DNA of 32,000 bases from Ruminococcus albus 7 = DSM 20455 (GCF_000179635.2 NC_014833.1:360001-392000), one strand, 5' to 3'; positions 3,443 through 28,370 are shown, numbered from the stretch's first letter. Made by a program: numbers and translations. Notes: generated by a model not told the origin, from the letters alone.

Positions 3443-3495
3443 ATACAGGATAGTATGATATAACAAAACGAAAGAGGATAAAAGGAGCGGCAACT

Positions 3496-9835: not shown

Positions 9836-9998
9836 TTTAAACGTCGATGATCCGTCTCAAATGCTACGGATATGCAATTAAAACAATCATAAACGGTATA
9901 AGGCGCATGGCAGAGTCTGCGCTTGAAAGACCGAAGATCACAGATTTATCGCGGAAGAATACGATCGATATAAACCGCGCAAAACAGGAGGAGCTATT

Positions 9999-10841: not shown

Positions 10842-10871
10842 TGACATAAACTGGAAAATCAAGCGGCCTTC

Positions 10872-10906
10872 AGCAGCCTCACCATAGGTGTGAGGCTGCT
10901 TTTTTG
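10872..10906 (+). terminator. Rho-independent terminator after the fumarate hydratase alpha gene
   Basis: AGCAGCCTCAC-cataggt-GTGAGGCTGCT followed by TTTTT. Confidence 0.85.
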
Positions 10907-10968
10907 CCTTATATAGGCACTCCTGATTGTTAATTATTGTAAATTTATTTGTGAATATTTTTCATTGG

Positions 10969-11010
10969 ATACAAAAACAAGACACACACATTGTATATGC
11001 ATACAAAAAC
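10969..11010. repeat. Direct repeat ATACAAAAAC x2 (10969-10978 and 11001-11010) upstream of the giant-operon promoter
   Basis: Exact 10-mers, 32 nt start to start, in a very AT-rich leader 33 nt upstream of the -35. Confidence 0.6.
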
Positions 11011-11042
11011 TAAGTTAATTATTTTTCTTAAATGGTCTAATG

Positions 11043-11071
11043 TTGACAACGGCGCATGACAGTGATATAAT
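11043..11071 (+). promoter_or_regulatory. Consensus extended -10 sigma-A promoter (TTGACA-17-TGaTATAAT) of the giant-protein operon
   Basis: ttgaca 11043-11048, an exact 17-nt spacer, TG at 11063-11064, tataat 11066-11071. It lies about 75 nt upstream of the first start codon. Confidence 0.7.
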
Positions 11072-11147
11072 TATAGTAGATAAGTATCTATGCGTATAGA
11101 GATAATAAAAACACACCCGTTTTCATGGGATACAGGAGGTGAAGCAG

Positions 11148-12305
11148 ATGAATGGTACAAATATGAAATATCCAATAGGCGAATTGGCTGAGTCTGCTTC
11201 TGCAGCTGTCCTGACGGCAGATGACCAGCGTTCTGAGAAAAAACAAGAACGCAACAGATCGATTATAAAGCTGTGTGCCATTGGCACGCTGATACTGATA
11301 GTGATCATCTTTTCTTCTATCGCGTGGTTTACTATGAATAGGGAAGTGGGGACCTCAGGGATGGGGGTGAAGGTGGCTCCTGCTCCGTTTGAACTTGAGG
11401 TCCGTGGCACAGACATTGAAAACGAAGACGATTTTTCAAAAGCTGATGATGAATATGATGATGGCGTGGATTTGGAAGAGCTAGATGCATATCAGACTGC
11501 CGGACAATATGGCAAGATAATCTGGAGAAAAACAGGCACCTCAGCTGACGATGGTCACTATCCTGATGGTTTATCACCTAATTCGCATGGCAAACTCACA
11601 TTTTGGGTTGTTCCAAACAGCACAGGGACACTTGATATAGAATTCAAATTCAAGGTCAGATGTTTTATCGGAACATATACTCCTGCAGCAACAGAAGATG
11701 CAGACCCTTCTTTAAATAATCTGTTTGAAGTAAACGAGAGCATGGAGGTTACAGCGGAAAACGGATTGAAAGATGCGGCAGATCTTGCTAAGAAAAAAGA
11801 TGCATTAAAATATATACAAAGCCACATCTTATTCTTCTCTGATTTTGACGGCACAAACTATTCGGGTTTTCTTGGAACAGGTCGGTCGATTAGATTCGGT
11901 GACTGTATAAATCCTTCAGCAGAGCCAAAAGCAAAGTATAATGCAGGAAATGCTGTGACTGTCACAGAGGGACAAAAATATCAGGTGACTATCTATTGGA
12001 AGTGGGCAAATACACTTGAGCAGATGATATTTGACAGCAATTCCCAATATAGAGACGATCCTTTGTTTGCAACATCAAACACAACGGATCGAAATGCAAT
12101 ATACACATATTTGAAAGACACCACTAATAACTCGGCTTTTTCCGGGGCATCAGACATTGAATCGCTTTTGACAACAATTCAAGGTGGAACAGATATTTCC
12201 ACAGCACTTGCAACGCTTACGACCGCATATGATAATGCCGATCAGATAATAGGTAATAATCTGGATTACATTTTGATTGAGATGATTGCAGAAACTGCAT
12301 CATAA
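11148..12305 (+). CDS. Secreted or anchored protein 1 of the giant-protein operon: N-terminal helix ending S-I-A|W-F, TasA/camelysin-like beta-rich body (hypothetical)
   Basis: The ORF opens at GTG 11139, but ATG 11148 lies 8 nt after AGGAGG (11134-11139). A ~40-aa polar N-tail is followed by the TM LCAIGTLILIVIIFSSIAWF. Later GLSPNSHGKLTFWVVPNSTGTLDIEFKF and YQVTIYWKW strands resemble TasA-family beta-sandwich signatures. Confidence 0.75.
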   Translation: MNGTNMKYPIGELAESASAAVLTADDQRSEKKQERNRSIIKLCAIGTLILIVIIFSSIAWFTMNREVGTSGMGVKVAPAPFELEVRGTDIENEDDFSKADDEYDDGVDLEELDAYQTAGQYGKIIWRKTGTSADDGHYPDGLSPNSHGKLTFWVVPNSTGTLDIEFKFKVRCFIGTYTPAATEDADPSLNNLFEVNESMEVTAENGLKDAADLAKKKDALKYIQSHILFFSDFDGTNYSGFLGTGRSIRFGDCINPSAEPKAKYNAGNAVTVTEGQKYQVTIYWKWANTLEQMIFDSNSQYRDDPLFATSNTTDRNAIYTYLKDTTNNSAFSGASDIESLLTTIQGGTDISTALATLTTAYDNADQIIGNNLDYILIEMIAETAS

Positions 12306-12328
12306 TCATTAAAGGAGGAGGTGCTATT

Positions 12329-13180
12329 ATGAGCAAGGTTTTTAACAAGATAAAAAACTTGAAACTCAAAGAGAAAATACAGCTTATTATGGCACTTCTT
12401 TTAACGTTAGCAATAATAGTGTCAATTCCGGTATACGCATGGTTTAATCATCAAAGACAAATTGCAGAGCTTCAAAGGATTAAAACACCGGACTTGTTAT
12501 ATATCAGCGCTGCATATGCTGAAGATGTAAAGTACTTTCAAATACCGTCCATAGATGTCGCTGATGAAAATAACACTAAGCATCGGCAGGTGTTTCCTTT
12601 TGCTGTAGCAGGTGAATATGTTCCTGAGTTTACTCTTCAGCTTGCTCACACAACAAACATTCCATTCACATATAAAATATACGAGGCGGAATACTATGAT
12701 ACCGAGTCTGCCGCTAGAACAGCGATAAATACTAAAAATCAGAGTATTGCTGAGGAAGCTGATAAACTCTCATATGAATATGATGCAGTAAAGTACGATG
12801 TTAAAGCAAAATGGACGATGCTGGATGAGTACACATTATCTCAGCGAACATTAAACGCAGGTGATACTCTCTATTTGGTTAAAGGGAATCAGGTTTCCGG
12901 AAGCTATTTGAACAGTACAACTTCAGGAAACCGATTAATTGCAAGCAATAAATACCATCCGGAAACATATAAGGATGGGGACAGTACTTATGGTCAGGTA
13001 CAAACATATGCTGAGCCGCTGTATTGGCAAAGCAGAAAAATATCAAGCGTCCCGAATCCTTCTGGATGGGGAGGAAATCCATTTTTCAAAACTTTTGTCA
13101 TAGAAATATCCTGGGATCCGTCTGAGGTGCAGAATGATAAAGAGACGGATATGATTTATATTTCCGCTTACAGGGAATAG
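12329..13180 (+). CDS. Secreted or anchored protein 2 of the giant-protein operon: signal-like helix ending V-Y-A|W-F (hypothetical)
   Basis: RBS aaaggaggagg lies 6-8 nt before the ATG at 12329. N-terminus is MSKVFNKIKNLKLKEKIQLIMALLLTLAIIVSIPVYAWFNHQ. 23-nt gap from the upstream gene. Confidence 0.75.
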   Translation: MSKVFNKIKNLKLKEKIQLIMALLLTLAIIVSIPVYAWFNHQRQIAELQRIKTPDLLYISAAYAEDVKYFQIPSIDVADENNTKHRQVFPFAVAGEYVPEFTLQLAHTTNIPFTYKIYEAEYYDTESAARTAINTKNQSIAEEADKLSYEYDAVKYDVKAKWTMLDEYTLSQRTLNAGDTLYLVKGNQVSGSYLNSTTSGNRLIASNKYHPETYKDGDSTYGQVQTYAEPLYWQSRKISSVPNPSGWGGNPFFKTFVIEISWDPSEVQNDKETDMIYISAYRE

Positions 13181-13219
13181 GCACTATTATCAATAATCAA
13201 AGAAAGGAGCAATGGCGCT

Positions 13220-14317
13220 GTGAAAAAGTCAATCCGGGCTAAGAAGTTTATAAAAAAACACTTAATCACAATATGGTTAGTTATAGCTGCTATTGCTTTC
13301 TGTGGGATTCTCGCTTATGCAAAGTTTAGTGATGGACAGAACTATACCAAGAGGGTTGTTTCAACAGGAACTAATGATAAGGTTTTATTTACTTCGAATT
13401 TGCTCAATACTTCAAATTCCGGACATCCGAAGTCTGTAACAAAAGGTTTTGCTGCTGATAGCTACTATGATATAAATATTTATAATTATGATAAGAATAA
13501 GGTATCAGCGTATTATCCTGGTACAATTAATTATACCTTAAGTGCTATGCTTGTTAAGCCTGATGCTAGTAGTACAGTCTATGATACTACAGTCACGGCA
13601 GACCTTAATGCATTAAAAGATGTTTTGATTGAAACACACGTCGATAATACAGACCCTGATAATCCGGTTACTACATATACTTATCACAAGATATACATAT
13701 ATCGACTGATTGACGGAACACCGGAAGATACGCCCATCGTAACGCTTGGCGCAATAGATCAAGATACAATGACCGCATCGTATGATTTAACGGGAGAACA
13801 GCTGGTGCCGGGAACATCTGGAAGTGCGGTTGAAAGCTACAGGGTGATTTTGCCTAAAGAAGTTATTGATTCAGATGTTCGAGTTAAGATCACAGCTCAA
13901 CCGAACGGACACAGTGATCTTCCTTCATCGATAGGCGGAGTGTTTTATATTCAGTCTCAGAACATAGTTATTACAACAGGATGGAAAGGCGAATTTGTTG
14001 ATAGCCGAACAAAAGCCCCGAGCGAATATGATGCATTTAATTATAGAATATCCGGAGCAGGAACGGCTAATAAGGTACTGAAGTGGAATAGTACTTATCT
14101 TCAGCCCAATAAGCAGGAGATAGCCGACCTTTTCGGTGACGGCTCGTTCTCAGCATCAACAAATCAAGAAACACACAGTTTTCCTTTAAAACCTGATGTT
14201 TATACTTATGATATCCAGTTTTATGTTAAGGATGCTGCAGCTAGAGAATATATCGATGGTTTGACATGGGAACAGCTGATAGCAGCTAATCTTGTCACCT
14301 TGGAAGATCCGCAATGA
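13220..14317 (+). CDS. Secreted or anchored protein 3 of the giant-protein operon: signal-like helix ending A-Y-A|K-F-S-D (SipW-class-like) (hypothetical)
   Basis: GTG start at 13220, 10 nt after aaaggag. N-terminus is MKKSIRAKKFIKKHLITIWLVIAAIAFCGILAYAKFSDGQ. 39-nt gap from the upstream gene. Confidence 0.72.
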   Translation: MKKSIRAKKFIKKHLITIWLVIAAIAFCGILAYAKFSDGQNYTKRVVSTGTNDKVLFTSNLLNTSNSGHPKSVTKGFAADSYYDINIYNYDKNKVSAYYPGTINYTLSAMLVKPDASSTVYDTTVTADLNALKDVLIETHVDNTDPDNPVTTYTYHKIYIYRLIDGTPEDTPIVTLGAIDQDTMTASYDLTGEQLVPGTSGSAVESYRVILPKEVIDSDVRVKITAQPNGHSDLPSSIGGVFYIQSQNIVITTGWKGEFVDSRTKAPSEYDAFNYRISGAGTANKVLKWNSTYLQPNKQEIADLFGDGSFSASTNQETHSFPLKPDVYTYDIQFYVKDAAAREYIDGLTWEQLIAANLVTLEDPQ

Positions 14318-14355
14318 TTTTCGGATTGCTTTGTTGGTAAAATGGAGTGATATAA

Positions 14356-17300
14356 ATGAAAAAACGTTTTAGAAAAAACAAAATTAATAATATAAGAAAA
14401 CGTATCATAAGCTCAGTGATAGTAGTTGCAATGCTTGTGAGTGACTGTCCTATGTCAGAACTTTCCAGAATTATTGGAAAAAAAGTGTCCTCGCCGTTTT
14501 CTCTTGAGGCTTCTGCTGCTGTAACATACGATAGGAGCGAATACACCAAGCATTACATAAATGAAGGGGTTGATACCGGTTACATACTCATCGAGTCATG
14601 GGATGATCTTGTTTGGTATTCTCAGTCGTATCACAATTATTCTCTTGGAACCGTATATACTACATCTGTAGAACACGAAAAAGATGTTCTGTTTATTAAT
14701 TTTGGTGCGAGTCAGGGAAATAACTACAACCTTAACGGAAAGGGCTATGTGCCTATCGGTAATGATTTAAAGCCATTTGAAGGAAGAGTAGTGTTTTCCA
14801 ACTCTTCTGCTGCTGATACATTTAATGTTCCTGAAGCGCTTTTTGGTACCATTTCTGAAACGGTTTCTATAAAAAATCAGGCTGAAACCGCCGTAAAGCA
14901 AATAAAGCTTACACGCACTGGCACAGGAAGCGGTGACGTATTATTTGCAAGAAAGGTAAAATCTGATGATGATAGCACCACTTGTGCGGAGTGGGACATA
15001 ATATTTGACAAGTTCGATAATTCTTCAGCTATTTCATATGCCGGATTGATAGGTGAGATTGAGGCTGGTGCAAATGTTCAGATTACTTATGAGAACAATT
15101 CCATTTTGACAAAATCAAATCTTGAAGCAAATGCAACATCTTCCGATACAGATGGTAAGCCGGTAGATGCCGGTGCCATTTGTGGAAAAATGGGTGCAGG
15201 GGCATCCCTGACTGCGACTTATTCCGGCACAAATACAGATTATAACATTACATCAGCTAATGGAAACGCAGGAGGCCTTGTTGGTTCAATGGAGGTTGGA
15301 TCTTCTCTGACAGTGACAACTTCTAATCTTCAGGGAGCTTCTGCTTGGGTATCTGCATCAAATGGTTATGCAGGTGGTATAGTCGGAAAAAATGACGGCG
15401 GTACGGTGACCATCACCCCATCATCCGGAACAACCTATACTGTTAGTCAGATAATACATGGAAAAGATGGCACAGGCGGATTATTTGGGTACTATGCACC
15501 ACCATCATTAGCTACGGCAGAACTTGATATTAGCAATTATTCAGTAAATTGCAAACTTGAGCAGGCAGTCTCGGAAACCGGCATCGGCGTTGCAGGCGGA
15601 ATAATAGGTGTTATTGAAAACGTTCCCGCAGACCCCACAGGAAGAGTAGGGGGCAGTTTAACAATTATAGGTAAGTCTGATGGTACTACTGTTGTAACCT
15701 CCACTCATGTTTCGCAAATAGATACCGTAACAGGTAAAGATACCGGTTATAAGGCTGAAGCATATGGTGGGCTTATCGGTTCTTATAAAGCAAGTGATAC
15801 CAGTTACTCTTTGAACATTAAGGATGTATCTACTACACCTACAAATACTCTTGCTGCTTCTGTTTATGGCGGAGGTATCGGTAAAATCATCGATGCATCG
15901 TATGTAAAGTTTGAAACCTTTAAGCTCAATAGTGCAGCAGGTGATCGTTCAGGAACATTTGGCGGGTTAGCGGCAGACAGTCCAAATGGATATATTTATG
16001 CAGATGGTTCAACAACAAATTCAAATTGTACAGGTATTGTAATTGGCAGTTCAGTGATTGACGGATTTACAGGTGGCGGTCTTGTAGGAAACCTTGGTGA
16101 CGGAGTTCTTGGAATAAAGGGCATGATTAATGTTTCAAATGCAAAACCTACTGCTGACGATACTAACGGTCATCTTGTCGGAACACGTGACAACGCTCTT
16201 ATCTATGCTGATGGAACTCCAAGCTACACCATGAGTAACATAGAAGTCGATAATGTTGGCTCTTGGGGCGATATTGTTGTTATTGACGGTACTAAACTGA
16301 AAAAGAATGCAACGTTAGATAATCTTAATGTGTTCAGTGAATCCAATCATATAATTACGATTGATAGTGTAACTCCTACAGCGATCGCAAATGCGGCGGA
16401 TTATGCAAAGGCATCACTTCTCTACCAAATTGAAGTTACAAAGAATGATTTTATTGCCAATGCTTCGAGTTTAACATCGAGTACTTCTGCACCATTAAAC
16501 CTTACATTTGGAGCAGATATCAATCTGACTGGAACTGGTCTTCGCGGAATAACCAGAGACAATGGAACCGACAGGGTTTCATATTCAGGTACGATCTCCG
16601 GCGGACATACGATTACTCTGGATATAAAGAATGTTGGCGGAAGCGACAGACCTGTCTATAGAAAGAAATACATCGGAATGCTTGGAATAGCAGATACCGT
16701 AACGATCAATAACACCACCTTTAGTGGTACTATTCTAAGCAAAAATGAAAGAACCACTGATAAAGACACCATATGTTATTTGGGGTCAGCTGCCGCACAG
16801 ATTAAAACAAGCTTTATCGCATCAAATTGCAATACAGCAAGTGGACTTAGTATAACTATGACTGGTTCAAAAGATGTTATTTCTGGCAGGCTGATAGGTG
16901 AAGCTGAGAGTGCTATTGGTACAATAACAATTTCTGGTAGCACATATGATGGAAATATTACCGGAAATAACAAAACGACTGTAGGTGGTACTATCGGCAA
17001 AATTGCCGGTGCTGCAAGCGGAGCTGTTTGGTCATTTAATGGTATCACTCTAAGAGGCAACGTAAAAGGAATACAACATGTCGGAGGCCTTATTTCTGAT
17101 GTTGAAGGTAGCGGTAATGCTACGATAAAACTTGGCAATTCTTCAAGTGTAGTTGCTGATAATAATCTTCATATTGAAGGAAACAGCAGTGACTCAATGG
17201 GAGGCCTGCTCGGTTATAGCTGGTCAAAAGCAGATGTGGAAGTCACAGATGTTGTAGCTTCCGGTCATCCTACAGTAGAACAAAAAAGCAGTGGTGGAGC

Positions 17301-20300
17301 TGCTGGCTTAGTTTATAGCGCTACAGGTCATTGGACTATTACAAAGCTGTACCTCGGCTATACTGACGCAGAAGAAAACTCTCATGCGATCAAAATGCTT
17401 ACCGGTACGGCTGGTTCTGTGGGCATGATCGTTAACAAAGGTAAAATAAGCAGTGACGGTATTTATCTCGAACTGCCTTCGGGATACGATTATAAACTTG
17501 CATATTATACTGCTGAAACAGAAGGCTCTGCTTTCAAATCTGGTGGTGTGTTTGATGAGATCTGCGCATACAGTGCTTCATCTAAAGATGCTATAATGAA
17601 CAACGGTCAGGGTATTGTTTCTATTAGCACGACCGGTCTGACAATGTCAACAACAGCGTCCGACAGCTTGAGTTATAAGAATCAGACTGTTCAGGGTAAA
17701 TATAAAAACGGAAATACAAGGTATTATTACAATTTGGATACTATTGATAAAGATAACACTCTATCTTCAACTGCTTATGCTAAGAAACTAATGAGATGGG
17801 GTGTACGTCAGTATGCCTGTGGAAATATCCAAAAGCATTTCCCCGATCCTTTCAGCAATAATACTATTCCTTCAGGAACATACAATATGCAGGGTTATAG
17901 CTGGTATCCAGTTACACCTCTTAACGCAATGACGGTAAACGGCACGTTTACTTTCTATAATAAGGAATTTGACGATTGCGAAAAAGTCAAGGGAAAGCAC
18001 GCAAATATTTCAGATGCTAGCAATAAAAACATCTGGTCACCGCTTGAGGCTGATCAGCATTACATGATGCAGAACGGCTTGTTTTATGATGTAAATAAAA
18101 ATATAACAATTGATGCAATCACACTTGCGGGTACTATCGGTGCAGTTGACAGTACCTCCGGTACCGGTGCGCTTGTTTACGGAAATGTAAAAGGAACTTC
18201 AACAGCCGTTACAACTATAAGCAATTCCGGAACGATTTCTTTAGCAGGCATCAGAGTATGGAATTTGAGTACTTATCCGGACTATGCGCCGCTACTTATC
18301 AATAAAGCAAGCGATTATGTTACATTTGATATTAAAAATGTATCAACAACGGATGCATATAAGAGAACAACGACAGGTGAATCCCCTGTTACAACGACGA
18401 TAGATGCCGCAACAAGTCTTATTGGTAAAGCCGGAACACGTGATACAGTCACCACAGACAGCAGCGGTAACCAAATACCGATAAGTCAGGGAATTACCGT
18501 CAGTTTCTCTGCAATTAAGCTTGACGGTAGAAATGCTGAAGAAGTTTCTGCCTATGGTACTACACCTGATCGTTATAATACTACAAAATCAATATTTACA
18601 AGGGCAACGCTGCTTGAACAGTTAATTGGTTCAAACGGCATATATAACTATACATTTGATGAGGACTGGGGTACGGGAACTCCTCATAAAGTTACTTATG
18701 GTAAAGAAGTAGGTTATACAACACAGGAACAGTATCCTAATCAGGAATTGTGGTATAAAGACGAAAAAGCAACCGGAGGCAAATCGAGATATACTCATCC
18801 TGACGCTGCGCCGCTCGATTCAGGTTCCACACGGTATACAGGTTTTGACTCATTCCGTCCTTATGTAGCAAGTGTAAGCACAAAAGCTGATATAGATGAT
18901 AAGACAGGGTTTAAGTACCAGCTTATGGTCAACCATCAGCCTTCGGACAAGATAGCCGGGTGCGGTACTTATAACGATCCGTATATTATTACAAGCGCAT
19001 CAGATCTAGTTACCATTTCAAAGTTTATAAACAGTAGTTCCAACCTTAATGGTACGATAAACTATGATGTTGATAAAGACGGATGGTGCGATTCTACAAC
19101 GGTAGGTGAGACAACGACTCTTTATACAGAGCATTTTGAATACACTCTCAATGGAACTTCAGCTGCTACCTGCTCAGGACAGTCTAATGTTACAGCTGAT
19201 GATATGAGAAAGTATCTTGCAAGCGCATATTATCAGATTCGTCTGTCAGGAGCTAATCAGCTTGTACTTACTTCTTCGTCAGGTTTCGTTGGCCTTGGCA
19301 CATCGGATATTCCCTTTTCCGGTGTTATTGACGGCGGACAGAATTCAACAACTACAATCGTAAATGAAACCCAGTACCCGCTGATTAACTACAGCGGCGG
19401 TTGTGTTGTAAGAAATCTAATCGTAACAGTTAATGAAACAGTTACCCTTGACGACGCGACAGATTCATATGATTATATTACGGGAGGAAAATCACACGGC
19501 GCTTATGGTGCCATAATTGCTGTCGTTGAAGGCGGCGATAATATAATCGATAATACACAGGTTACATTTGGCACATCTGTTATAAATGCAAAGGGTAAGA
19601 AAGCACAGTTCCAGCCGATCGGTGGTTATGTTGGTGTTGTTGTTAATGGCGGTGTTATATTCAGAAATATGACATCAGGCAACATTAGCGGTATTTCCAG
19701 TTCAAATGTATCAGCAGTACAAGGAGGCAACTGGCCTCAGATTAATTATTCTGACGGGAAAGCTATAGATACCACAGCCAAGCTGTCTGAATATACCGTT
19801 AATATGACTCAGCCAAATAATTTGCTTTGGCTCTATGTTAATCCTATTATCGGCAGGGTTATTAACGGTTATGCCGTGAACATTGCCTCCGCTTATCATC
19901 CTGCTTATTCAGACTGCATTATGAATAACGGTAATAAGAGTTATTCGATAACGGATATTTCTTTGTCAGGTGGTTCGTTAACAATTTCCGGATCAAATCT
20001 GACTGTTCCAAATGGTCAGGCGCTGTTCTTGACTTCCGTGATCGTAAACAGCGGCATGGGCGCAAATAATACGCTTGGCTATGCAGATACATATACTAAA
20101 CGTACTGCTGATTATAACAATGTGGGATCTAATGCTGTGGCATATACTTTATGTTCGGATTTCAATACCTATGCAAAGAATGATACAACAACTGGTACTG
20201 CGTATATTATTGATAATTTTGCAACCGATGGCAGTACGCTCGGAAGTGGAGGACCATGGAATATTACGCTAACATCGAATGGATCGTTTGTTCTTCCTGA

Positions 20301-23300
20301 TGGCTTCAGAGGTATTGGAAACTTTTATCAGAATGATACGAAGTATCTTCTGAATGTCAGCGATTTTAACGGTAATGGAGAAACTATAACTCAGAATACC
20401 TATTTCTATACATATGACGACGGTAGTGGTAAGTTTGATACAGTATATTATCCTAACACAGGTATTGAGGGGGCAGCGTCATATAGTAGTACAACAGACG
20501 CTGGAATAGGCTTATTTACCAGGCAGGTCCAAAACGGAGCAAATTATTATGATTTTAAACTGTCCGGAACACTTAAAAGCGACGTTATAAATCATAAAAC
20601 TGGTGTACACGTTGAATATACAGGAAATACTAAAACTGCTGGCTCTATAGTTGATGCTGGTAATTCTGATCTAAAACAAGTATTGTCAGCAGGAATGTTA
20701 TTTGGTAATTTTTCAGGAGCAGGAGCTAAAGGGGTTAGTAATTCTGCACCAACCTATATAACTAATGTTGCACTGGTAGATATTGATGTTAGCGCGGCCA
20801 AAATGGCAGGTGGAATGATTGGTATTGTACCTATTGGTGCTGCTAATACAGACGGTTTTACAAATATGGAGATAGAGGTTAATTCCAGCACTTATAATTC
20901 ATATGGCATAAAGGTTCATGGAGGACTAAGTTCAGCCGGTTTAATCGCAAGATATCAGCAAGGTATCTGTAATATTGATTTCCATGGGAACAGATTCGAT
21001 ATAAACGAAATTGTGAGCGACACAAAGTCAAATACAGATAACTATTATTATGGTGTCGGGGGTATTATAGGAACACTTAGAGCTGATAGAAATACCCCAG
21101 CAAGCCCTGTTACAATAAAAAATGTTACGTTGGGTGATAAAAATGCTACAAAAGCTATTGAGGTTAAATGTTCAGAGAGCGGATGCGGCATAAATGCCGG
21201 TGGATTGATCGGCTCACTTAACAGAGCTTCGGCGACAATGGACAATTGTCATGTGTTCAATGTTTCTGTATCTTCCAATGGGTCTTCAACTCATGTTGGC
21301 GGCGCTTTTGGCCATATGCGTACACAATGTAACGTTACTGTAATAGATTCCTCAATAGAATCAAATGACACCGCAAAAGCAAGTATAACAGGTAATGGTT
21401 ATGTTGGCGGCTTCTTGGGCAACTCTCCGATAACCGGTGATCAGGCTCGAACATTTATCGTGGAAAACAGTAGGATCAAAGGGTATACGATATCCGGAAA
21501 TATTTCCGGCGGTATTGTAGGTGATAGAGCTGCTATTAACGCTACCTATTATCTTACCGTTAACAATTTTTCAATTGAAAAATGTACTATCAAAGGTGAT
21601 ACATATGCCGGTGGTTTGGTTGGCTATTTACATCATCCGTTGAGCGGCTATAACATTTTGGCAAAGGATTTAACTTTTGAACCTCATACTGAAGGCGGCA
21701 CTATTGCCAATCTTGGTTATTTAGTAGCGAAAAATGATAGTGTAATCAAATTGGTAGGTTTTTCTCGTCAGGCTGATTCTTCATCAACGATGGTTCAGGC
21801 TATGACCGGCGGAAGCAACGCTACAAATTATGGCAATGGCGGATATGTTATCTTTGCTGATTATATGGGTACGGCATCGTATAACAACAGCACCTTTACT
21901 CCGGGGGAAAACTCGAAGAATGCTTTTTCAGGCATGACAAGCAGTACAAATGTAACGCCTTATGCTCCTTATGTATCGACGAGCCCGTTTGCAAATATTG
22001 CAAATTATAACTCTGTCATGCAGTATCTGCTAAGTGATGGCGCAAGCCCGCTGACGAGTGCAACATTCGGTCGTTCTACACAAGCTTTTGCCAAGATTTA
22101 TGATGATATTGCCAATAACAATAATGGCTACTATGAGATACCAAAAGCATATCTTGATACGGAGGATGAGTATAAGTCGTATACTACAAAAATCTCATCA
22201 TTTAAAACTGAAATGGGCGACAAGCTTGCGAATGGAATAGATTTTCCTGTGCTTGTGCTTGATAAAATTAACAAAGGTGAGATGACTGATTTTATAAATC
22301 ACTATATAAATCTACTTACAAATACGTCAAGCACATATAATTTTGCAACAAGTGCTAATAGTACAATATACGATGTTGATATTTACAAGGTTATATTTAA
22401 TGCTGCCGGTGATGAGATAAGCACTATTACAGATGTAGACACCTGTCTTAAAGTTAATGCTGGAACAAATGCAACTGCCCAGTTCTATATTGAATCCGAT
22501 GATACGGATACAGCTGCCTCGACAGCACAGTTTACTCTGATGGATGTTAAGTTTATGAATCCTTCGGCTACGGGAACGGTTGCATATCATCTATATATTC
22601 CCTGTTATGTCAGAAAGCTTCTTGAATACGATTTTGATATCCATATAGATTCAGGAACGACCTATGACATAAACAAATATACTCAGCTCACTGAAAATAG
22701 TCTTGTTGAGAATATCGGAACACCTATAACTCTTGAATTTGCATTTACCTACCAGCGTAATGCTCAGGAATGGACGGAAGCGGTCAACGGCGGAGACTCA
22801 CTTCTCTCTAATTATCCTAAGAGTTTACTATTTGACAACTCAACTACTGTAACATCTGGATCAAAGCCTCAATTCTCGTCCACAACCAAAATGGTTCTTA
22901 TTGATACGCAGAATTCTTCAAAGGCATATTATCTTGATGGACTCAATAATACTTCGTTCACTCCATCAGGGGATTACAGAACATTGAACTTCAGTAGTTT
23001 TGCTGATCTTAATAGTACTGGATTTACGCCTGTAAGTTTCAATGATATGTTAAATGTTTCTGTAACGCCAAATTCATCCGGAACGCTTGTGCAGGATAAT
23101 AACAATGCTATTGTTAAGGACACTACAACGGGAACAAAATATAGACTGGCGACTGATGCAGATACCGCTCTTACAAAATACACTGCAACTGTCACATTCA
23201 AAAACGAAGGAGATACAGCTCTTTCCGAACATTATTTCCTGACAATATATACTCCGTATTCAACTGCTGATGTTGTTTACCATTATGTTGTTCAGGCAAA

Positions 23301-24615
23301 TAAAGATCTCGGAACCGATCCATATCCTTCAAGAATTACGTCAGAATCAGAAAGCAACGTTGTTCATTTGTATACAGGCTATATTTATAACAACCATGTG
23401 TATATCGATAGTCTCAAGGTTGGTGGAGTAGAAAACTATGAGGAAATAACAGCAGAGAACAACTCCATCGAAGCGAGTATTCATGCAACTATAGGACTTA
23501 CTTCTTCTGGTGAAGAGAACATCAGATCTACCTTATCGGCTACCACGCCGCCTGACATTTTCCAGAGTTTTCTGATAAAACTCAACAAGGATGGAAATGT
23601 TGGACTTGCTGCGGCAAGTTCGGTTACAGTAGAGAATTATAGAATTGGTAATAAGCTTGTGACTGACTCTACCATGAACCCGTCGTGGACTAGTGCTGAA
23701 TACACGGATATGCGCATACCTAATTACATTGAAATGAGAAATGGTGTCCCTCTTGCACGATCTCTTTCTGAGATTCCTGCTAATGGAACGCTTAACGTTT
23801 CAGCGAAAGCGACCATTACCTTTGATAATGACAATGGTGATATCACTGCTCAGTTCTTCCCGCAAACGGCTGAAAAATACACAACGCTCATTGCTTATTC
23901 AAATATTGCATCAAGTAGCGAGAATACGGCTTCGAGTAATGTTTCAGCGTATGCTGATACCACGGTCGGAGGAACCAAACCTCAATATTATACAAAGATT
24001 GAAGAAAAGGCAATACTGAATTATGATGCGCTTGATGTTCCGGCAGACGGAAGCAATTTGCCGCAGCTTGGAATTAATGCCAATGATCCAAATGACATTA
24101 AGAAGCTACCTGCACCTATAAAAACGGTAGCATCATATAATGTTGAAAATTGTCAGTCAGCATGGCAAGTGGCCAATTTCGTCAAAATTGAAATTGAATT
24201 GAAATCAAAAAATGATGGATATACTGCACCTTTAGGTATTTTTGATTACATCCAAGAAAGCACGTTTACAATATTTGATGGTGAGATTGATTCCGATGAT
24301 ATAATAACAACTGGGACTACTGCGAACAAATTGATTTATATTATTGACAAGACTGATTTGGAACAGTTTTATAATGATAAGGTATATCGTATTCCAATTG
24401 ATTTCAATGTTTACTCTGGAAGCGGAGCAAGTAATAATTTTGAATCGGTAAATAAGCAGTATTCTAATTATGGTATATTCATAAAGGTGTCAATGCTTCA
24501 AGCGGCGGATTCCGAATCAGCGGTAAGTGGAACAGAACCGGAGTATAATAACAACAATTTTGTTAAGTATACAAATGCTAGGATATACCTTGAAAAGGTG
24601 AATCCAAACAAATAG
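14356..24615 (+). CDS. Giant (3,419 aa) secreted GLUG-repeat, predicted beta-helical surface/fibre protein without a recognisable wall anchor
   Basis: 10,260 nt with no in-frame stop in AT-rich DNA, and a GGAG RBS before the ATG. N-terminus is basic (MKKRFRKNKINNIRKR) followed by a hydrophobic helix. About 24 GG[LIV][IVF]G-type motifs counted by eye, for example NAGGLVGS, YAGGIVGK, VAGGIIGV, AYGGLIGS, NAGGLIGS, YAGGLVGY. A 'GCGTYNDPYIITSASDLVTISKFI' module head lies at ~nt 18955. Rich in T/S/N/G. Confidence 0.9.
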   Translation: MKKRFRKNKINNIRKRIISSVIVVAMLVSDCPMSELSRIIGKKVSSPFSLEASAAVTYDRSEYTKHYINEGVDTGYILIESWDDLVWYSQSYHNYSLGTVYTTSVEHEKDVLFINFGASQGNNYNLNGKGYVPIGNDLKPFEGRVVFSNSSAADTFNVPEALFGTISETVSIKNQAETAVKQIKLTRTGTGSGDVLFARKVKSDDDSTTCAEWDIIFDKFDNSSAISYAGLIGEIEAGANVQITYENNSILTKSNLEANATSSDTDGKPVDAGAICGKMGAGASLTATYSGTNTDYNITSANGNAGGLVGSMEVGSSLTVTTSNLQGASAWVSASNGYAGGIVGKNDGGTVTITPSSGTTYTVSQIIHGKDGTGGLFGYYAPPSLATAELDISNYSVNCKLEQAVSETGIGVAGGIIGVIENVPADPTGRVGGSLTIIGKSDGTTVVTSTHVSQIDTVTGKDTGYKAEAYGGLIGSYKASDTSYSLNIKDVSTTPTNTLAASVYGGGIGKIIDASYVKFETFKLNSAAGDRSGTFGGLAADSPNGYIYADGSTTNSNCTGIVIGSSVIDGFTGGGLVGNLGDGVLGIKGMINVSNAKPTADDTNGHLVGTRDNALIYADGTPSYTMSNIEVDNVGSWGDIVVIDGTKLKKNATLDNLNVFSESNHIITIDSVTPTAIANAADYAKASLLYQIEVTKNDFIANASSLTSSTSAPLNLTFGADINLTGTGLRGITRDNGTDRVSYSGTISGGHTITLDIKNVGGSDRPVYRKKYIGMLGIADTVTINNTTFSGTILSKNERTTDKDTICYLGSAAAQIKTSFIASNCNTASGLSITMTGSKDVISGRLIGEAESAIGTITISGSTYDGNITGNNKTTVGGTIGKIAGAASGAVWSFNGITLRGNVKGIQHVGGLISDVEGSGNATIKLGNSSSVVADNNLHIEGNSSDSMGGLLGYSWSKADVEVTDVVASGHPTVEQKSSGGAAGLVYSATGHWTITKLYLGYTDAEENSHAIKMLTGTAGSVGMIVNKGKISSDGIYLELPSGYDYKLAYYTAETEGSAFKSGGVFDEICAYSASSKDAIMNNGQGIVSISTTGLTMSTTASDSLSYKNQTVQGKYKNGNTRYYYNLDTIDKDNTLSSTAYAKKLMRWGVRQYACGNIQKHFPDPFSNNTIPSGTYNMQGYSWYPVTPLNAMTVNGTFTFYNKEFDDCEKVKGKHANISDASNKNIWSPLEADQHYMMQNGLFYDVNKNITIDAITLAGTIGAVDSTSGTGALVYGNVKGTSTAVTTISNSGTISLAGIRVWNLSTYPDYAPLLINKASDYVTFDIKNVSTTDAYKRTTTGESPVTTTIDAATSLIGKAGTRDTVTTDSSGNQIPISQGITVSFSAIKLDGRNAEEVSAYGTTPDRYNTTKSIFTRATLLEQLIGSNGIYNYTFDEDWGTGTPHKVTYGKEVGYTTQEQYPNQELWYKDEKATGGKSRYTHPDAAPLDSGSTRYTGFDSFRPYVASVSTKADIDDKTGFKYQLMVNHQPSDKIAGCGTYNDPYIITSASDLVTISKFINSSSNLNGTINYDVDKDGWCDSTTVGETTTLYTEHFEYTLNGTSAATCSGQSNVTADDMRKYLASAYYQIRLSGANQLVLTSSSGFVGLGTSDIPFSGVIDGGQNSTTTIVNETQYPLINYSGGCVVRNLIVTVNETVTLDDATDSYDYITGGKSHGAYGAIIAVVEGGDNIIDNTQVTFGTSVINAKGKKAQFQPIGGYVGVVVNGGVIFRNMTSGNISGISSSNVSAVQGGNWPQINYSDGKAIDTTAKLSEYTVNMTQPNNLLWLYVNPIIGRVINGYAVNIASAYHPAYSDCIMNNGNKSYSITDISLSGGSLTISGSNLTVPNGQALFLTSVIVNSGMGANNTLGYADTYTKRTADYNNVGSNAVAYTLCSDFNTYAKNDTTTGTAYIIDNFATDGSTLGSGGPWNITLTSNGSFVLPDGFRGIGNFYQNDTKYLLNVSDFNGNGETITQNTYFYTYDDGSGKFDTVYYPNTGIEGAASYSSTTDAGIGLFTRQVQNGANYYDFKLSGTLKSDVINHKTGVHVEYTGNTKTAGSIVDAGNSDLKQVLSAGMLFGNFSGAGAKGVSNSAPTYITNVALVDIDVSAAKMAGGMIGIVPIGAANTDGFTNMEIEVNSSTYNSYGIKVHGGLSSAGLIARYQQGICNIDFHGNRFDINEIVSDTKSNTDNYYYGVGGIIGTLRADRNTPASPVTIKNVTLGDKNATKAIEVKCSESGCGINAGGLIGSLNRASATMDNCHVFNVSVSSNGSSTHVGGAFGHMRTQCNVTVIDSSIESNDTAKASITGNGYVGGFLGNSPITGDQARTFIVENSRIKGYTISGNISGGIVGDRAAINATYYLTVNNFSIEKCTIKGDTYAGGLVGYLHHPLSGYNILAKDLTFEPHTEGGTIANLGYLVAKNDSVIKLVGFSRQADSSSTMVQAMTGGSNATNYGNGGYVIFADYMGTASYNNSTFTPGENSKNAFSGMTSSTNVTPYAPYVSTSPFANIANYNSVMQYLLSDGASPLTSATFGRSTQAFAKIYDDIANNNNGYYEIPKAYLDTEDEYKSYTTKISSFKTEMGDKLANGIDFPVLVLDKINKGEMTDFINHYINLLTNTSSTYNFATSANSTIYDVDIYKVIFNAAGDEISTITDVDTCLKVNAGTNATAQFYIESDDTDTAASTAQFTLMDVKFMNPSATGTVAYHLYIPCYVRKLLEYDFDIHIDSGTTYDINKYTQLTENSLVENIGTPITLEFAFTYQRNAQEWTEAVNGGDSLLSNYPKSLLFDNSTTVTSGSKPQFSSTTKMVLIDTQNSSKAYYLDGLNNTSFTPSGDYRTLNFSSFADLNSTGFTPVSFNDMLNVSVTPNSSGTLVQDNNNAIVKDTTTGTKYRLATDADTALTKYTATVTFKNEGDTALSEHYFLTIYTPYSTADVVYHYVVQANKDLGTDPYPSRITSESESNVVHLYTGYIYNNHVYIDSLKVGGVENYEEITAENNSIEASIHATIGLTSSGEENIRSTLSATTPPDIFQSFLIKLNKDGNVGLAAASSVTVENYRIGNKLVTDSTMNPSWTSAEYTDMRIPNYIEMRNGVPLARSLSEIPANGTLNVSAKATITFDNDNGDITAQFFPQTAEKYTTLIAYSNIASSSENTASSNVSAYADTTVGGTKPQYYTKIEEKAILNYDALDVPADGSNLPQLGINANDPNDIKKLPAPIKTVASYNVENCQSAWQVANFVKIEIELKSKNDGYTAPLGIFDYIQESTFTIFDGEIDSDDIITTGTTANKLIYIIDKTDLEQFYNDKVYRIPIDFNVYSGSGASNNFESVNKQYSNYGIFIKVSMLQAADSESAVSGTEPEYNNNNFVKYTNARIYLEKVNPNK

Positions 24616-24911
24616 GAGTAACCTACACACCATTGTCCCCTAAAACCCAATCCATCCTCACAGGGCATACAGGGGATATAGGGTGTGTGGCGAGATAGGT
24701 AAAACTCCTGTCAAAAACTCAAAGCTTTGTCAAAGGATGACCCGCCTTTCCCCCAATCCCTTAAATTTTCCCCTGGCCTTAACCCGGCAAATCCAATGAA
24801 GTGGAGAGTATTAAGAAAGAAGCCGCAGGTTTATGTAGAAAAAGGTAAAGGTAAAGTGGTAGAAAACAAGTAATGAATATCACCGAGTATTAAAACAAAT
24901 TAATATTTCCT

Positions 24912-24974
24912 AATAACACCCCAGGGGAAGAGAAGAGTAATACTTTTCTACTTTACCCACCGGGGTGTTATTTT
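24912..24974 (+). terminator. Long hairpin plus T-rich tail, a possible distal terminator of the giant operon
   Basis: AATAACACCCC (24912-24922) pairs with GGGGTGTTATT (24962-24972), followed by TTAT. The ~39-nt loop has further partial pairing. It lies ~300 nt after the stop codon, so the assignment is weak. Confidence 0.3.
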
Positions 24975-24997
24975 ATATAGTAGGGCACTTTAGTAGT

Positions 24998-25005
24998 GTA
25001 AATGG
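24998..25005. repeat. Target-site duplication (left copy) GTAAATGG of the IS66-family element
   Basis: An identical 8-mer directly abuts both inverted repeats (24998-25005 and 28011-28018). Confidence 0.9.
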
Positions 25006-25115: not shown

Positions 25116-25463
25116 TTGGAGACGATTAGACAAGGAGGTAACAGGTATGGACAAAACAACATCCATCACAACAATCAAAAAGAAATGCAGCTTCAGGAAT
25201 GGTCTGCGCAGATCAAAGCACAGCAGGCAAGCGGTCTGACGATCCGGGAATGGTGCAAAGAAAATGGGATCAAGCCAAACACGTATTACAACCGCCTAAG
25301 AAAAGTTCGTGAAAAGTATATCGAAAATTCTCCGACCATCGTTCCTGTATCAGTTCCTTGCTCAAACGAAAATATCCGCATTGAGAAAAACGGACTTCAA
25401 ATATCTCTTCCGGCAGATATATCTGCGGACACTCTGACCGCTTTGGTGCATGAGCTATGCTGA
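25116..25463 (+). CDS. tnpA: IS66-family accessory protein TnpA (Orf1, HTH); start uncertain
   Basis: MQLQEWSAQIKAQQASGLTIREWCKENGIKPNTYYNRLRKV is the conserved IS66 Orf1 core (ATG 25185). The best RBS (AAGGAGG 25132-25138) serves ATG 25147 in another frame, which would join this frame if the A5 run at 25177-25181 were A6. Confidence 0.75.
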   Translation: METIRQGGNRYGQNNIHHNNQKEMQLQEWSAQIKAQQASGLTIREWCKENGIKPNTYYNRLRKVREKYIENSPTIVPVSVPCSNENIRIEKNGLQISLPADISADTLTALVHELC

Positions 25464-25815
25464 ATGATCTGGCAGCGGACGCACAGGTCTATCTTGTTAC
25501 GGGATACACCGACCTTCGACGCGGGATAGACGGACTTGCGACTATCGTTCAGGCTCAGCTTCGACTTGACCCGTTCTCGAAAGCATTGTTTTTGTTCTGC
25601 GGCAGACGTTGTGACCGCATCAAAGGTCTGCTGTGGGAGGGCGATGGTTTTCTGCCTGTTCGTACAAGCGCCTTGACAACGGAAGATTCCAGTGGCCGCG
25701 CAGTGAGACCGAAGCAGTAATGCTCACATCTCAGCAAATTCGCTGGCTTCTGGAAGGCTTGAAAATAGAGCAGCCGAAGGCTATCCGTGAGGGAAAGCCG
25801 GGGGCGCTGTATTAA
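25457..25815 (+). pseudogene. tnpB: IS66-family TnpB (Orf2), frameshifted as assembled
   Basis: Two overlapping ORF pieces (25457-25720, 25633-25815) together spell the conserved ...LFLFCGRRCDRIKGLLWEGDGF / YKRLDNGRFQWPR...LTSQQIRWLLEGL. One extra T in the T4 run at 25648-25651 restores a single frame. Confidence 0.85.
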
Positions 25816-25907
25816 GGCAATACTTACCGAATATTCAGAATATGTGCTTGAAAAGCCCCTCTTTTCGTGGTATCATTAAAGTATCATAACGAACGGAGGG
25901 GTGCTTT

Positions 25908-27418
25908 ATGTCCGAACCAAATATGACATCGGAAATTGTATCGCTCCGTAATGAAAACGCTGTTCTCAAGGAAGAACTAGCACTTGCCAATCAGCAGTTA
26001 GCGTGGTTCAGAAAGCAGATATTCGGAAGAAAAACAGAGCAGACATCTGTTGTTATGGAAAAGGAGTTCGGTGTTCAGCTTTCCATGTTCGGAAACAATG
26101 AAGAAAAATCCGCAGCTAAATCTGCCGAAACAATTACTGTTCCCGAACACAAGCGCAAGAAAAAACGCACTCACGATGAATGGATGAACAATCTGCCTGT
26201 AAAAGAAGAACATCACAAAATTGACAACCCGGTATGCGAAATATGCGGCGCCGAAATGGAAGAACTGACTCCCGAAAAGGCTTACGATGAACTTATATTT
26301 ACGCCGCCAAAATATCATATCCGCAGGCATATAGTACATAAGTACAAGTGTCCCGAGTGCGGAGAAAAGCCCGAAGAAAGGGACGAACCTTGTCATATCA
26401 TCCGTGCGCCATATCCTCACGCTATGATCCCGGGAAGCTATTGCTCTCCCGAACTTCTGGCTCATATCATCTACGAAAAATATGCAAAGTCAGTACCTCT
26501 GCACCGTCAGGAAAAGGACTTTAATTCCAAAAACATACCTCTGCTCAAAGCGACTATGTCTAATTGGGTAGGCACTGCTGCCGAAAAATGGTGTTTGCCG
26601 ATTGTGGAGAAAATGCATGAGACGCTTATCGCAGGGCAGATGATCCATGCCGATGAAACGACCGTTCAGGTGCTTCACGAGGAAGGCCGAAAGCCTACCA
26701 CGACATCAAGAATGTGGGTCTACTGCAACGGCAAAATGAATGACAGGAGCATCATCATTTTCGATTATCAGCCGACACGAAAGGGTGAGCACGCCTCGAA
26801 TTTCCTGAAAGGATTTATCGGCTATCTTATCTGTGACGGATACGATGCCTACAATGCAGTCGAGGGTGCTAAGCGATGCGGCTGTATGACTCATGCAAGG
26901 CGTGGTTTTATTCAGGCTCTTCCGAACGACCAAAAGCTGCACAGCACTTCTGTTGCGGCAAAGGCAGTAGAATATTTCAACAAGATATATCACGAAGAAA
27001 ATCTGCTTGCCGACAGCTCCACAGAATACAGATATAAACAGCGCCTTGTGAAGGTAAAGCCTTTGCTTGACGAGTTTTTTGCGTGGCTTGAAAATGTTCA
27101 GGTCAGTGGTAAGGGCAAGCTGACAGATGCAGTAAGATATGCGTTGAATGAACGGAAATATCTTTACACGTTTCTTGAAAACGGAGACGTGCCTATCGAC
27201 AACAACAGAGCCGAAAACGCAATAAGACCGTTTGCGTTAGGCCGAAAAATTGGCTGTTTTCAAATACAGCAAACGGAGCCAGATCAAGTGCAACGCTGTA
27301 TTCGATCATTTCAACTGCACAGGCGAACGGTGTTGATGCTGAGAAATACCTGACCGAGCTGTTTTCACAGCCTGCGGGGACGATATTATTACCATGGAGG
27401 GAAGAAAATGAAACTTAG
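25908..27418 (+). pseudogene. tnpC: IS66-family transposase TnpC (DDE), C-terminus frameshifted as assembled
   Basis: The 481-aa ORF has a zinc-ribbon-like CEICG...CPECG and the IHADETTVQV / DGYDAYN / DNNRAENAIRPFALGRK motifs. After GRK the conserved continuation NWLFSNTANGARSSATLYSIISTAQANGVDAEKYLTELF is in the next frame (stop at 27416-27418). The A5 run at 27245-27249 would need to be A6. Confidence 0.9.
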
Positions 27419-28178: not shown

Positions 28179-28370
28179 CTGATTGTAAAGGAAGTTCCGC
28201 TCTTCTCTGAGAATATCGGTGCGAAGATACCGGAGCTGGATATCACAGCTCTGCCCCGTGATCAGGGCGAGCTGGACAATATGGATGATTATGGAGATAC
28301 ATATGAACCCGAAGACCCGTCAGTTTTGGCGGGCTTTTTTGATCTGGATAAAGGAGGTGTCGGCGATTGA
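28179..28370 (+). pseudogene. 3' fragment of an unknown gene, translationally coupled to the SNF2 gene (mobile-element remnant)
   Basis: 63 sense codons with no plausible start, ending ...EPEDPSVLAGFFDLDKGGVGD-TGA. The stop overlaps the TTG start of the next ORF (TTGA), and two in-frame stops lie immediately upstream (28173, 28176). Confidence 0.4.

Follow-up and report, generated by a model that had tools for sequence, protein, structure and literature searches.

In the genome of Ruminococcus albus 7 (DSM 20455), a stretch of 32,000 nucleotides (nt; NC_014833.1:360001-392000), hereafter the window, with positions counted from its first letter, contains a giant open reading frame (ORF) on the + strand (14356-24615), whose product (ADU20911 / WP_013497103) carries the database label "hypothetical protein". 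With a probability of about 0.6 we consider this giant protein to be a surface fibre that does not depend on sortase, probably serves as an adhesin and works together with three small membrane or secreted partner proteins, U1, U2 and U3. The giant gene is the last of a four-gene operon, U1-U2-U3-giant, and the protein belongs to a large, colinear and unannotated family of rumen and human-gut bacteria. Direct results bear out the gene, the folds, the family and the gene linkage; surface location, the part played by U1-U3 and adhesion are inferred. An earlier reading of the same DNA, made by a model from the letters alone (the sequence-only reading), had treated the ORF on its own, without the conserved operon and the large family.

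How could such a fibre be built? The protein, of ~360 kDa, would be exported to the surface of R. albus 7 via the Sec pathway. After a leader of ~54 residues, ~2,400 residues would form a long stalk of right-handed parallel beta-helix, in which two GLUG-like solenoid blocks, homologous to each other, are combined with a highly conserved central module and a second, capped helix. The last ~820 residues would form a string of immunoglobulin-like (Ig-like) beta-sandwich domains, a type known from the stalks of adhesins and pilins of Gram-positive bacteria. A coil of a beta-helix takes up ~30-34 residues and 0.48 nm, and with this assumed geometry the helical part would measure ~35 nm. About five Ig-like domains would add ~20 nm, and the total would be enough to cross the Gram-positive wall and project from it. 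U1-U3 would most likely sit in the membrane or wall and there hold or assemble the fibre. The parts of the giant protein, with amino acid positions given as aa, are the following:

14356..14517, + strand: leader, aa 1-54, with a basic n-region, an h-region, S-D-C-P-M-S-E, ~20 residues and A-S-A
14518..15225, + strand: N-terminal region with head 1 and the motif PFEG, aa 55-290
15226..17355, + strand: GLUG-like solenoid block 1, aa 291-1000, ~12 conserved GGxxG coils
17356..18945, + strand: central module, aa 1001-1530, where conservation within the family is highest
18946..20775, + strand: second beta-helix, aa 1531-2140, opening with head 2, predicted by AlphaFold2 as an all-beta right-handed beta-helix
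20776..21705, + strand: GLUG-like solenoid block 2, aa 2141-2450, 8 coils of 33-36 aa, aligned by hhalign to aa 291-620
21706..22140, + strand: low-confidence segment, probably a linker, aa 2451-2595, with a predicted local distance difference test score (pLDDT) mostly below 50 and conserved GGYVIFADY and PYV
22141..24615, + strand: tail, aa 2596-3419, predicted as a small alpha/beta part followed by ~five Ig-like beta-sandwich domains

The modular layout of the sequence-only reading, with leader, head 1, block 1, middle, head 2, block 2 and a non-repetitive beta-sandwich tail, agrees with this map.

The giant ORF is a genuine gene. It is a single open frame of 3,419 codons that starts with ATG, 8 nt 5' of which a GGAG is located. 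The exact protein is found on 15 contigs of separate assemblies, among them the 3.69-Mb R. albus 7 chromosome, the draft contig JHYT01000072 and an independent assembly of run SRR097527. As the identical protein occurs in these separate assemblies and colinear homologues exist in more than 100 clusters, mis-assembly is excluded. The orthologue of Ruminococcus sp. YE71 is 89.8% identical, with only 13 gapped columns in the alignment, and the ratio of nonsynonymous to synonymous substitution rates (dN/dS, Nei-Gojobori) between the two genes is 0.137 overall and 0.08-0.28 in all eight of eight segments, indicating purifying selection along the whole gene and ruling out a pseudogene as well. Purifying selection had been claimed earlier from the observation that 10,260 nt stay open next to a decaying insertion sequence (IS); the decay of this neighbour is also evident, its IS66 tnpB being broken across two frames.

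How large is the family? An exhaustive phmmer search with aa 1-1200 as query against 1.84 billion representatives of clusters at 50% identity yielded 327 representatives of the giant family at E <= 1e-3, 218 of them at E <= 1e-30. Complete members are mostly 3,200-3,960 aa long, and an alignment of 61 full-length members displays conservation from end to end, with an occupancy of 0.56-0.97 per stretch of 50 residues. At 461 positions at least 80% of these 61 members are identical to the query; 142 of these positions are Gly and 66 are Tyr, which suggests that conservation is structural. Members with a name come from R. albus, R. flavefaciens, Ruminococcus sp. and metagenome-assembled genomes labelled Oscillospiraceae, Clostridia or Lachnospiraceae, and all are annotated as "hypothetical". 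No precomputed Pfam domain is recorded on any family member retrieved, and searches of Pfam, NCBIfam and PHROGs with the whole protein or with pieces of it gave nothing significant. Sequence searches of the PDB, run with the complete protein and with central-module, tail and GLUG-block profiles, gave nothing meaningful either; the matches to the FtsN SPOR domain, nanobodies and an FG-nucleoporin in the giant-protein and U1-U3 profile searches are due to chance or low complexity. No publication on the family came up in literature searches for GLUG, for the accession numbers or for giant proteins of Ruminococcus, and it is not mentioned in the paper on the R. bromii amylosome. The tail used alone as query finds 4 relatives by word index and 9 by profile, numbers that understate the family given the 327 representatives of the exhaustive search. 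The tail also has relatives that are proteins in their own right. Two of them, one of 772 aa and a truncated copy, lie at positions 2-2107 and 9980-12298 of one locus (L005) among DNA methylase and helicase genes; a third, of 1,201 aa, is encoded at 979-4584 of another (L007), directly 3' of an extracytoplasmic function (ECF) sigma factor gene and a 63-aa ORF; and at one further locus the tail is encoded as a separate gene.

The stalk model draws on the repeats. GLUG-type motifs had been reported to cluster in two blocks, and this clustering is real: the strict pattern GG[LIVMF][LIVFAM]G occurs at 13 sites, whereas 2,000 shuffles gave 0.27 on average and never more than 3. A first cluster comprises aa 306, 340, 374, 414, 471, 574 and 949, a second one aa 2152, 2235, 2282, 2351, 2385 and 2419, and the spacing between GG motifs is often ~34 aa. 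When relaxed and family-conserved GG positions are included, block 1 has ~12 coils (aa 306 to 984) and block 2 ~8 within aa 2141-2450, plus 2-3 in aa 1717-1765. The earlier count of about 12 and 12 motifs and the end motifs quoted for the blocks (nt 15265, 17293 and 21604) were correct, but the extent given for block 2 has to be corrected, as only nt 20776-21705 are truly GLUG-like whereas nt 19490-20775 form a different type of beta-helix with a weak relation to the GLUG-like blocks (hhalign 71%). With profiles built from the 61 full-length relatives, aa 291-620 align coil by coil with aa 2141-2450 over 228 columns (hhalign probability 98%, E 7e-14), aa 621-1000 match the same segment with 97% probability, and in nine lineages the two blocks share eight invariant GG columns that are in register. 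By these profile comparisons the two blocks (aa 291-1000 and aa 2141-2450) are homologous to each other. Self-BLAST is blind to this internal duplication, which becomes visible only when profiles are compared. Are these blocks GLUG repeats proper, as the sequence-only reading had called them? The GG coils and the solenoid model agree with that name. However, Pfam Glug (PF07581) does not match the whole giant protein at E <= 1, and among 400-aa pieces it gives a single match (E 0.35) whose 11.8 bits lie below the gathering cut-off of 20.5 bits. In 5 of 18 block segments from 9 family members it is found at E <= 1, with a best E of 2.3e-4. "GLUG-like" is a fair name for what is a resemblance rather than an established membership.

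Both head motifs are present where they had been placed, and both are conserved. Head 2 reads AGCGTYNDPYII (aa 1534-1545, nt 18955 onward), and its GCGTYNDPY (aa 1535-1543, nt 18958-18984) is invariant or nearly so in the 61 family members. Head 1, GYILIESWDDLVWYSQSY (nt 14578-14631, aa 75-92), follows the looser conserved pattern [IV]x[IV]xSxx[DE]LxxYSxxY, and a conserved PFEG in the N-terminal region that holds head 1 parallels a PFSG after head 2. They are not, as had been supposed, the starts of independent modules, for a unit conserved in the family begins at ~aa 1150 and passes unbroken through head 2.

The fold of the stalk and of the tail was approached by AlphaFold2, another step that the sequence-only reading had suggested. 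The model of aa 1530-2450, based on an alignment of 25 homologues, is almost purely beta (pLDDT 77, predicted template modelling score (pTM) 0.85), and its leading Foldseek matches in the PDB are all right-handed parallel beta-helix proteins, although this is a fold-class assignment only, since no PDB match reaches E 0.001. Among the matches are the autotransporter passengers EspC, Hbp, SepA and IgA1 protease, the enzyme families PL6, GH110 and GH28, a fucoidan lyase and phage tailspikes; the Bacteroides ovatus structure 3n6z, labelled "putative IgA1 protease", is matched with a probability of 1.0 and a target TM-score of 0.46. A library of viral structures returned the same fold class. These tailspikes, and phage proteins termed 'right-handed beta-helix', raise the idea that the giant protein originated as the tail fibre or tailspike of a prophage or tailocin and is not a cellular surface protein. 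One short relative does lie near phage head-tail genes: a short system at L008 8188-13342 consists of a U2-like, a U3-like and a 1,113-aa beta-helix protein and is located beside genes for HK97 gp10-like and Phage_HCP proteins. Yet no relatives were found among INPHARED phages, PLSDB plasmids and IMG/VR viral contigs, the giant protein has no PHROG match, the family members carry Sec-type leaders, and the flanks consist of housekeeping genes, uvrA/B and fumarase among them, all of which makes a phage origin extremely improbable.

The tail was described by the sequence-only reading as devoid of GLUG motifs and as looking like stacked beta-sandwich domains, and both statements are supported. No GG motif occurs after aa 2423, and neither self-BLAST nor hhalign detects internal repeats in the tail. 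Its AlphaFold2 model (aa 2440-3419, 12 sequences in the alignment) is weaker than that of aa 1530-2450, with pLDDT 69 and pTM 0.57. The first ~155 residues are of low confidence, followed by a small alpha/beta part and then by mostly beta strands. Its best Foldseek matches are the Ig-like domains of PrgB (8beg, E 1.3e-13), the C-domains of antigen I/II and the Gram-positive pilins EbpC, LrpA, PilA and SpaD (3qe5, 5dza, 4ofq, 9lty, 8w5b and 4hss), and integrin leg domains are matched as well. A likeness of the tail to the three upstream proteins, claimed on style, is not found by phmmer or hhalign. The residues K2754, K2822, D2718, D2730, E2785, E2958 and N3371 are conserved in the family and are candidate partners in isopeptide or ester bonds. 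The extreme C-terminus is conserved too, as YSNY ... [DH][HY][IL]IYTNA[KR][IV] (YTNARIY in the giant protein). This conservation bears on a further alternative, a CdiA-like fibre for interbacterial warfare or toxin delivery, with the beta-helix serving as delivery stalk and the C-terminus as effector. The very large size, a beta-helix stalk as in TpsA/CdiA proteins, the fold matches to EtpA and Hap, and the occurrence of the tail module elsewhere as a separate gene or in other contexts would suit such a weapon. But its C-terminus should then be variable, whereas here it is conserved and colinear throughout the family down to the last YTNA motif and is predicted as Ig-like domains; Pfam and NCBIfam reveal no toxin or immunity domain; and no small immunity-like gene follows consistently 3', the next element being an IS in R. 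albus 7, a WYL regulator gene in strain YE71 and U2/U3 in Ruminococcus of the gut. We regard this alternative as very improbable.

The idea that the fibre does not act alone comes from the operon. Its upstream features are:

10872-10900: terminator of the fumarate hydratase gene, upstream of the operon promoter
11043..11071, + strand: sigma-70-type operon promoter, TTGACA, 17 nt spacer and TG-TATAAT, 12/12 matches
11148..12305, + strand: U1 (ADU20908, 385 aa), charged N-terminal extension, hydrophobic helix, extracytoplasmic domain of ~320 aa
12329..13180, + strand: U2 (ADU20909, 283 aa), basic N-terminus, hydrophobic helix, conserved TTN-PF and KETD
13220..14317, + strand: U3 (ADU20910, 365 aa), basic N-terminus, hydrophobic helix, conserved KRVVST and LFTSN

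The gaps between U1, U2, U3 and the giant gene are 23-39 nt. In 71 of the 80 loci fetched, that is, on every contig with enough flanking sequence, a giant homologue adjoins U2 and U3. Rumen-type loci have the order U1-U2-U3-G, where G is the giant gene. About 65 human-gut loci, assigned to Ruminococcus by UvrB, have the order G-U2-U3, and their G protein (3,240-3,260 aa) is 27% identical and colinear from residue 3 to 3410. In Anthropogastromicrobium aceti (Lachnospiraceae) the giant gene is split in two and the order is U3-G1-G2-U1-U2. That the linkage has outlasted rearrangement in two bacterial families argues strongly for functional coupling. The partners are also numerous in their own right: a pattern scan with the U2 alignment found 241 U2 relatives in metagenomes, and one cluster of partner proteins has 1,196 member sequences, a single exact sequence of which is present on 415 contigs. 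At two loci (L009 8977-10014 and L090 1721-3151) a DUF4869 protein and a P-loop ATPase-like protein are encoded directly 5' of the system; this pair may be unrelated to it.

U1-U3 have no match in Pfam, NCBIfam or PHROGs and no meaningful one in the PDB. The hydrophobic helix of U1, preceded by a charged extension of ~40 aa, has 22 residues and ends in an invariant A-W-F, that of U2 has 21 and ends in P-x-x-A-W-F, and that of U3 has 20 and ends in A-Y-A-K-F (A-[AK]-[YF] in its family). In the three families the hydrophobic stretch has a median of 22 residues, and the charged extension before the U1 helix comprises 30-130 residues. The helix is preceded by K or R and then [IVL]-Q-L; Gly is absent from -1 and Glu from +5. 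With these features the helices fit single-pass membrane anchors, and they could alternatively be cleaved signals of the TasA type. The latter option leads to a rival explanation in which U1-U3 are the polymerising subunits of a heteropolymeric fibre or pilus, by donor-strand exchange as in TasA or in a pilin-like manner, with the giant protein at its tip or base. Minor pilins with PilY1 and TapA with TasA offer parallels, and the conserved cluster of three small secreted or anchored beta-rich proteins beside one large adhesin-like protein would suit such a fibre. The junctions A↓WF and A↓KF/AY of U1-U3 resemble the TasA/CalY junctions, A↓AFND and A↓YFSD. The U2 profile aligns with a TasA sequence over 77 columns (hhalign 10%, pairwise E 0.003), and in the PDB it matches nothing but the N-terminal helix of an archaeal flagellin (E 1.3); such statistical support is at chance level. 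On the other hand, Peptidase_M73 is found at E <= 1 in none of 27 U-family members, U1-U3 of the window match neither the NCBIfam SipW-cognate signal nor a prepilin model at E <= 10, and they contain no G↓FTLxE motif. In the neighbourhoods examined there is no gene for SipW, a prepilin peptidase, a sortase or an assembly ATPase, and no signal peptidase or secretion ATPase is consistently near. A polymer of this kind appears unlikely. Type IV pilins or pseudopilins were rejected as an identity for U1-U3 for lack of Gly at -1, Glu at +5 and a prepilin model match, and a WxL/Csc complex because no WxL, DUF916 or LPXTG and no Pfam match is found in any of the four proteins.

For the giant protein as a surface fibre, the leader is the next point to consider. 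It consists of a basic n-region of 16 residues and an h-region of 13 residues (aa 17-29), the latter having been counted as 12 by the sequence-only reading, which was otherwise right about the n-region and the lack of a nearby A-x-A and of a lipobox. The only A-x-A in the leader is ASA at aa 52-54. A leader with a basic n-region and a hydrophobic h-region is present in 99 of 104 family members. The n-region is very basic throughout (median 7 Lys/Arg) and the h-region has a median of 18 residues. Of these 99 members 68 have a Pro near the end of the h-region, mostly followed by an acidic residue, and 65 have an A-x-A near residue 52, at a median distance of 18 residues. Judged by this comparison, the leader pattern is a family trait, and the short h-region together with the conserved A-x-A near residue 52 would favour cleavage at least as well as an anchor. 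The leader may be a cleaved signal or the suggested uncleaved anchor; the long helices, of 22 residues, belong to the partners. A lipoprotein is ruled out by VSDC having Asp at -1, hence no valid lipobox, and by Cys31 not being conserved, as it is Phe in the 89.8%-identical orthologue.

Known routes of anchoring and known enzyme classes were searched for as well. A motif scan of the giant protein finds no LPXTG (LPxT[GANS]), YSIRK or KxYKxGKxW, as had been noted before, and not one of 103 full-length relatives carries LPxT[GAS] within its final 80 residues or a C-terminal membrane helix, so that a sortase substrate is ruled out. The same scan contains neither HExxH nor HxxEH, and no Peptidase_M26 match was obtained on the giant protein, the sole M26-related match being Peptidase_M26_N at E 0.22 on one segment of a homologue; an M26 IgA1 zinc metalloprotease is excluded accordingly, and the earlier statement that the protein is not an IgA-protease-like zinc enzyme is upheld. 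A Dockerin_1 match at aa 1547-1580 (window 18994-19095, loop DVDKDGWCD) is a single half-site with 18.9 bits, below the cut-off of 22.9 bits, which disqualifies the protein as a dockerin-bearing cellulosomal component; located just after head 2, the loop is poorly conserved, of low pLDDT, and probably merely calcium-binding-like. Autotransport and two-partner secretion (TPS) were rejected because Pfam and NCBIfam find no C-terminal barrel or TPS domain in the giant protein and its neighbours and because the host is a Ruminococcus. As the giant protein has no known wall-binding or sortase signal, U1-U3 are the best candidates to hold or assemble it.

What speaks against a fibre with an adhesive function? 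Several observations have to be set on the other side of the balance. The matches of the beta-helix model are weak, none being found at E <= 0.001 against the PDB, and they include many polysaccharide lyases and hydrolases. The central module, with its invariant motifs VFDE, RYYYNLD, GYSWYP, QHY, YAPLLIN, LDGR and VTYGKE, contains the invariant polar residues D1067, E1068, R1122, H1235, D1390, R1392 and E1451, which could form a catalytic or ligand site. The A-x-A of the leader lies 23-25 residues beyond the h-region, a position atypical for signal peptidase I. Finally, searches for LPXTG, SLH, WxL, LysM, a choline-binding domain and a full dockerin found no wall-anchoring module. The main rival assigns a catalytic role to the central module or the helix. 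On this view the giant protein is a surface-displayed carbohydrate-active enzyme, with the beta-helix and/or the central module acting as a polysaccharide lyase or glycosidase on plant fibre or glycans and the tail serving as no more than a spacer. R. albus degrades fibre, and the fold matches include PL6 alginate lyases, a chondroitinase, GH110, GH28 polygalacturonases, a fucoidan lyase, PL3 and a C5-epimerase, while acidic, basic and His residues are invariant in the central module. Against an enzyme stand the lack of any Pfam or NCBIfam match to a carbohydrate-active enzyme or of pectate-lyase type, even at E 1-10, the TM-scores of 0.1-0.3 of fold matches that all fail to reach E <= 0.001, and the preponderance of Gly (142) and Tyr (66) among the 461 conserved positions. 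Moreover, the family is also present in human-gut Ruminococcus and a Lachnospiraceae species, hosts that differ in diet. Taken together this renders an enzyme decidedly unlikely. Adhesion is most likely, being the default function for this combination of folds.

If the giant protein is such a fibre, a more far-reaching proposal can be entertained, which we put forward tentatively and hold to be possible rather than probable: that the giant protein and U1-U3 constitute a previously unrecognised sortase-independent system of Oscillospiraceae and Lachnospiraceae in rumen and human gut for both building and holding a surface fibre. The fibre would be ~50-60 nm long, and U1-U3 would be a dedicated platform in the membrane or wall or a short donor-strand polymer. 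The platform would capture one end of the fibre, possibly via the leader-proximal region or the C-terminal YTNA strand, and the ~54-residue leader would be part of the same mounting mechanism. Giant fibrous surface proteins are major determinants of the attachment of bacteria to particles, hosts and each other. The family is common in human-gut Ruminococcus, with at least 327 clusters and no Pfam or NCBIfam model or sequence-detectable relative of solved structure, and its members are candidate adhesins of fibre-degrading and starch-degrading gut bacteria. Having none of the known Gram-positive anchoring signals and, as constant companions, two or three small helix-bearing partners, it may bring to light a new mechanism by which Clostridia fix very large proteins to their wall. 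If it is just another adhesin, the value lies mainly in annotation, namely four new protein families and their domain boundaries.

The surroundings of the operon are rich in mobile elements. Upstream an IS110-family transposase is encoded on the - strand (7524-8699), followed by a CPBP/Rce1-like intramembrane protease (8903-9835), and the fumarate hydratase gene with its terminator lies between the latter and the operon. Directly 3' of the giant ORF an IS66-type element (25116-27353) contains a tnpA-like ORF (25116-25463), tnpB in two overlapping frames (25457-25720 and 25633-25815) and a tnpC (25908-27353) whose C-terminus looks frameshifted; the draft contig JHYT01000072 stops at this element, ~485 nt past the giant ORF. 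Between the IS66 element and a helix-turn-helix (HTH) regulator several short broken ORFs and an N-terminal fragment of a SNF2/DEAD helicase (28367-29284, 305 aa) are found, and the DNA beyond the operon has the look of debris left by mobile elements. Across 11000-25000 the G+C content of the operon is 0.37-0.43, below that of both flanks (0.43-0.47), each of which contains insertion sequences; this could result from a composition rich in Thr, Ser, Asn and Tyr or from horizontal acquisition.

How does the system compare with those already known? With the GLUG beta-helix regions (PF07581; 3N6Z, BACOVA_03286) the giant protein shares the coils with a G-G-[LIV]-[IVF]-G turn and the cap G-x-G-T-x-x-D-P-Y-x-I, and 3n6z is the PDB match of its beta-helix model with the best probability. 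GLUG regions also occur in non-catalytic parts of streptococcal M26 proteases. In contrast to these, the giant solenoid is far longer, is interrupted by a conserved module of 530 aa, stays below the Glug cut-off and lacks a protease domain, HExxH and LPXTG. The tail model matches the tandem Ig-like stalk domains of antigen I/II, PrgB and the pilins SpaD, EbpC, LrpA and PilA, and the giant protein would have a similar role as rigid extracellular stalk or adhesin. There is, however, no detectable sequence similarity between these and the tail, the giant system has no LPXTG, pilin motif or sortase gene, and its Ig-like string is C-terminal to a beta-helix instead of being placed below a lectin-like head. 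A very long right-handed beta-helix as the body of a secreted fibre is also found in the passengers and TpsA adhesins EspC, Hbp, Hap, EtpA and FHA, of which the first four are among the top-ranked fold matches. But these are Gram-negative proteins, and the host here is a Ruminococcus, one of the Firmicutes and without an outer membrane; since there is also no autotransporter barrel or TPS domain, export and retention of the giant protein must differ from theirs. The operons fimU-pilVWXY1 and tapA-sipW-tasA have the same layout of several small proteins plus a large one. The csc clusters of L. plantarum likewise pair small anchored proteins with one large surface protein (PMC1534035). A conserved cluster of several small secreted or anchored proteins and one large extracellular protein is common to these systems and the giant operon, which by analogy suggests a multi-protein surface complex, though the analogy is organisational only, as the giant operon has no WxL, DUF916, LPXTG, prepilin motif or Peptidase_M73/TasA match. 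As a giant surface protein of beta-solenoid and Ig-like domains, the giant protein is thus of a kind already known, and it is the partner proteins, the leader and the unannotated family that make it distinctive, if not categorically new.

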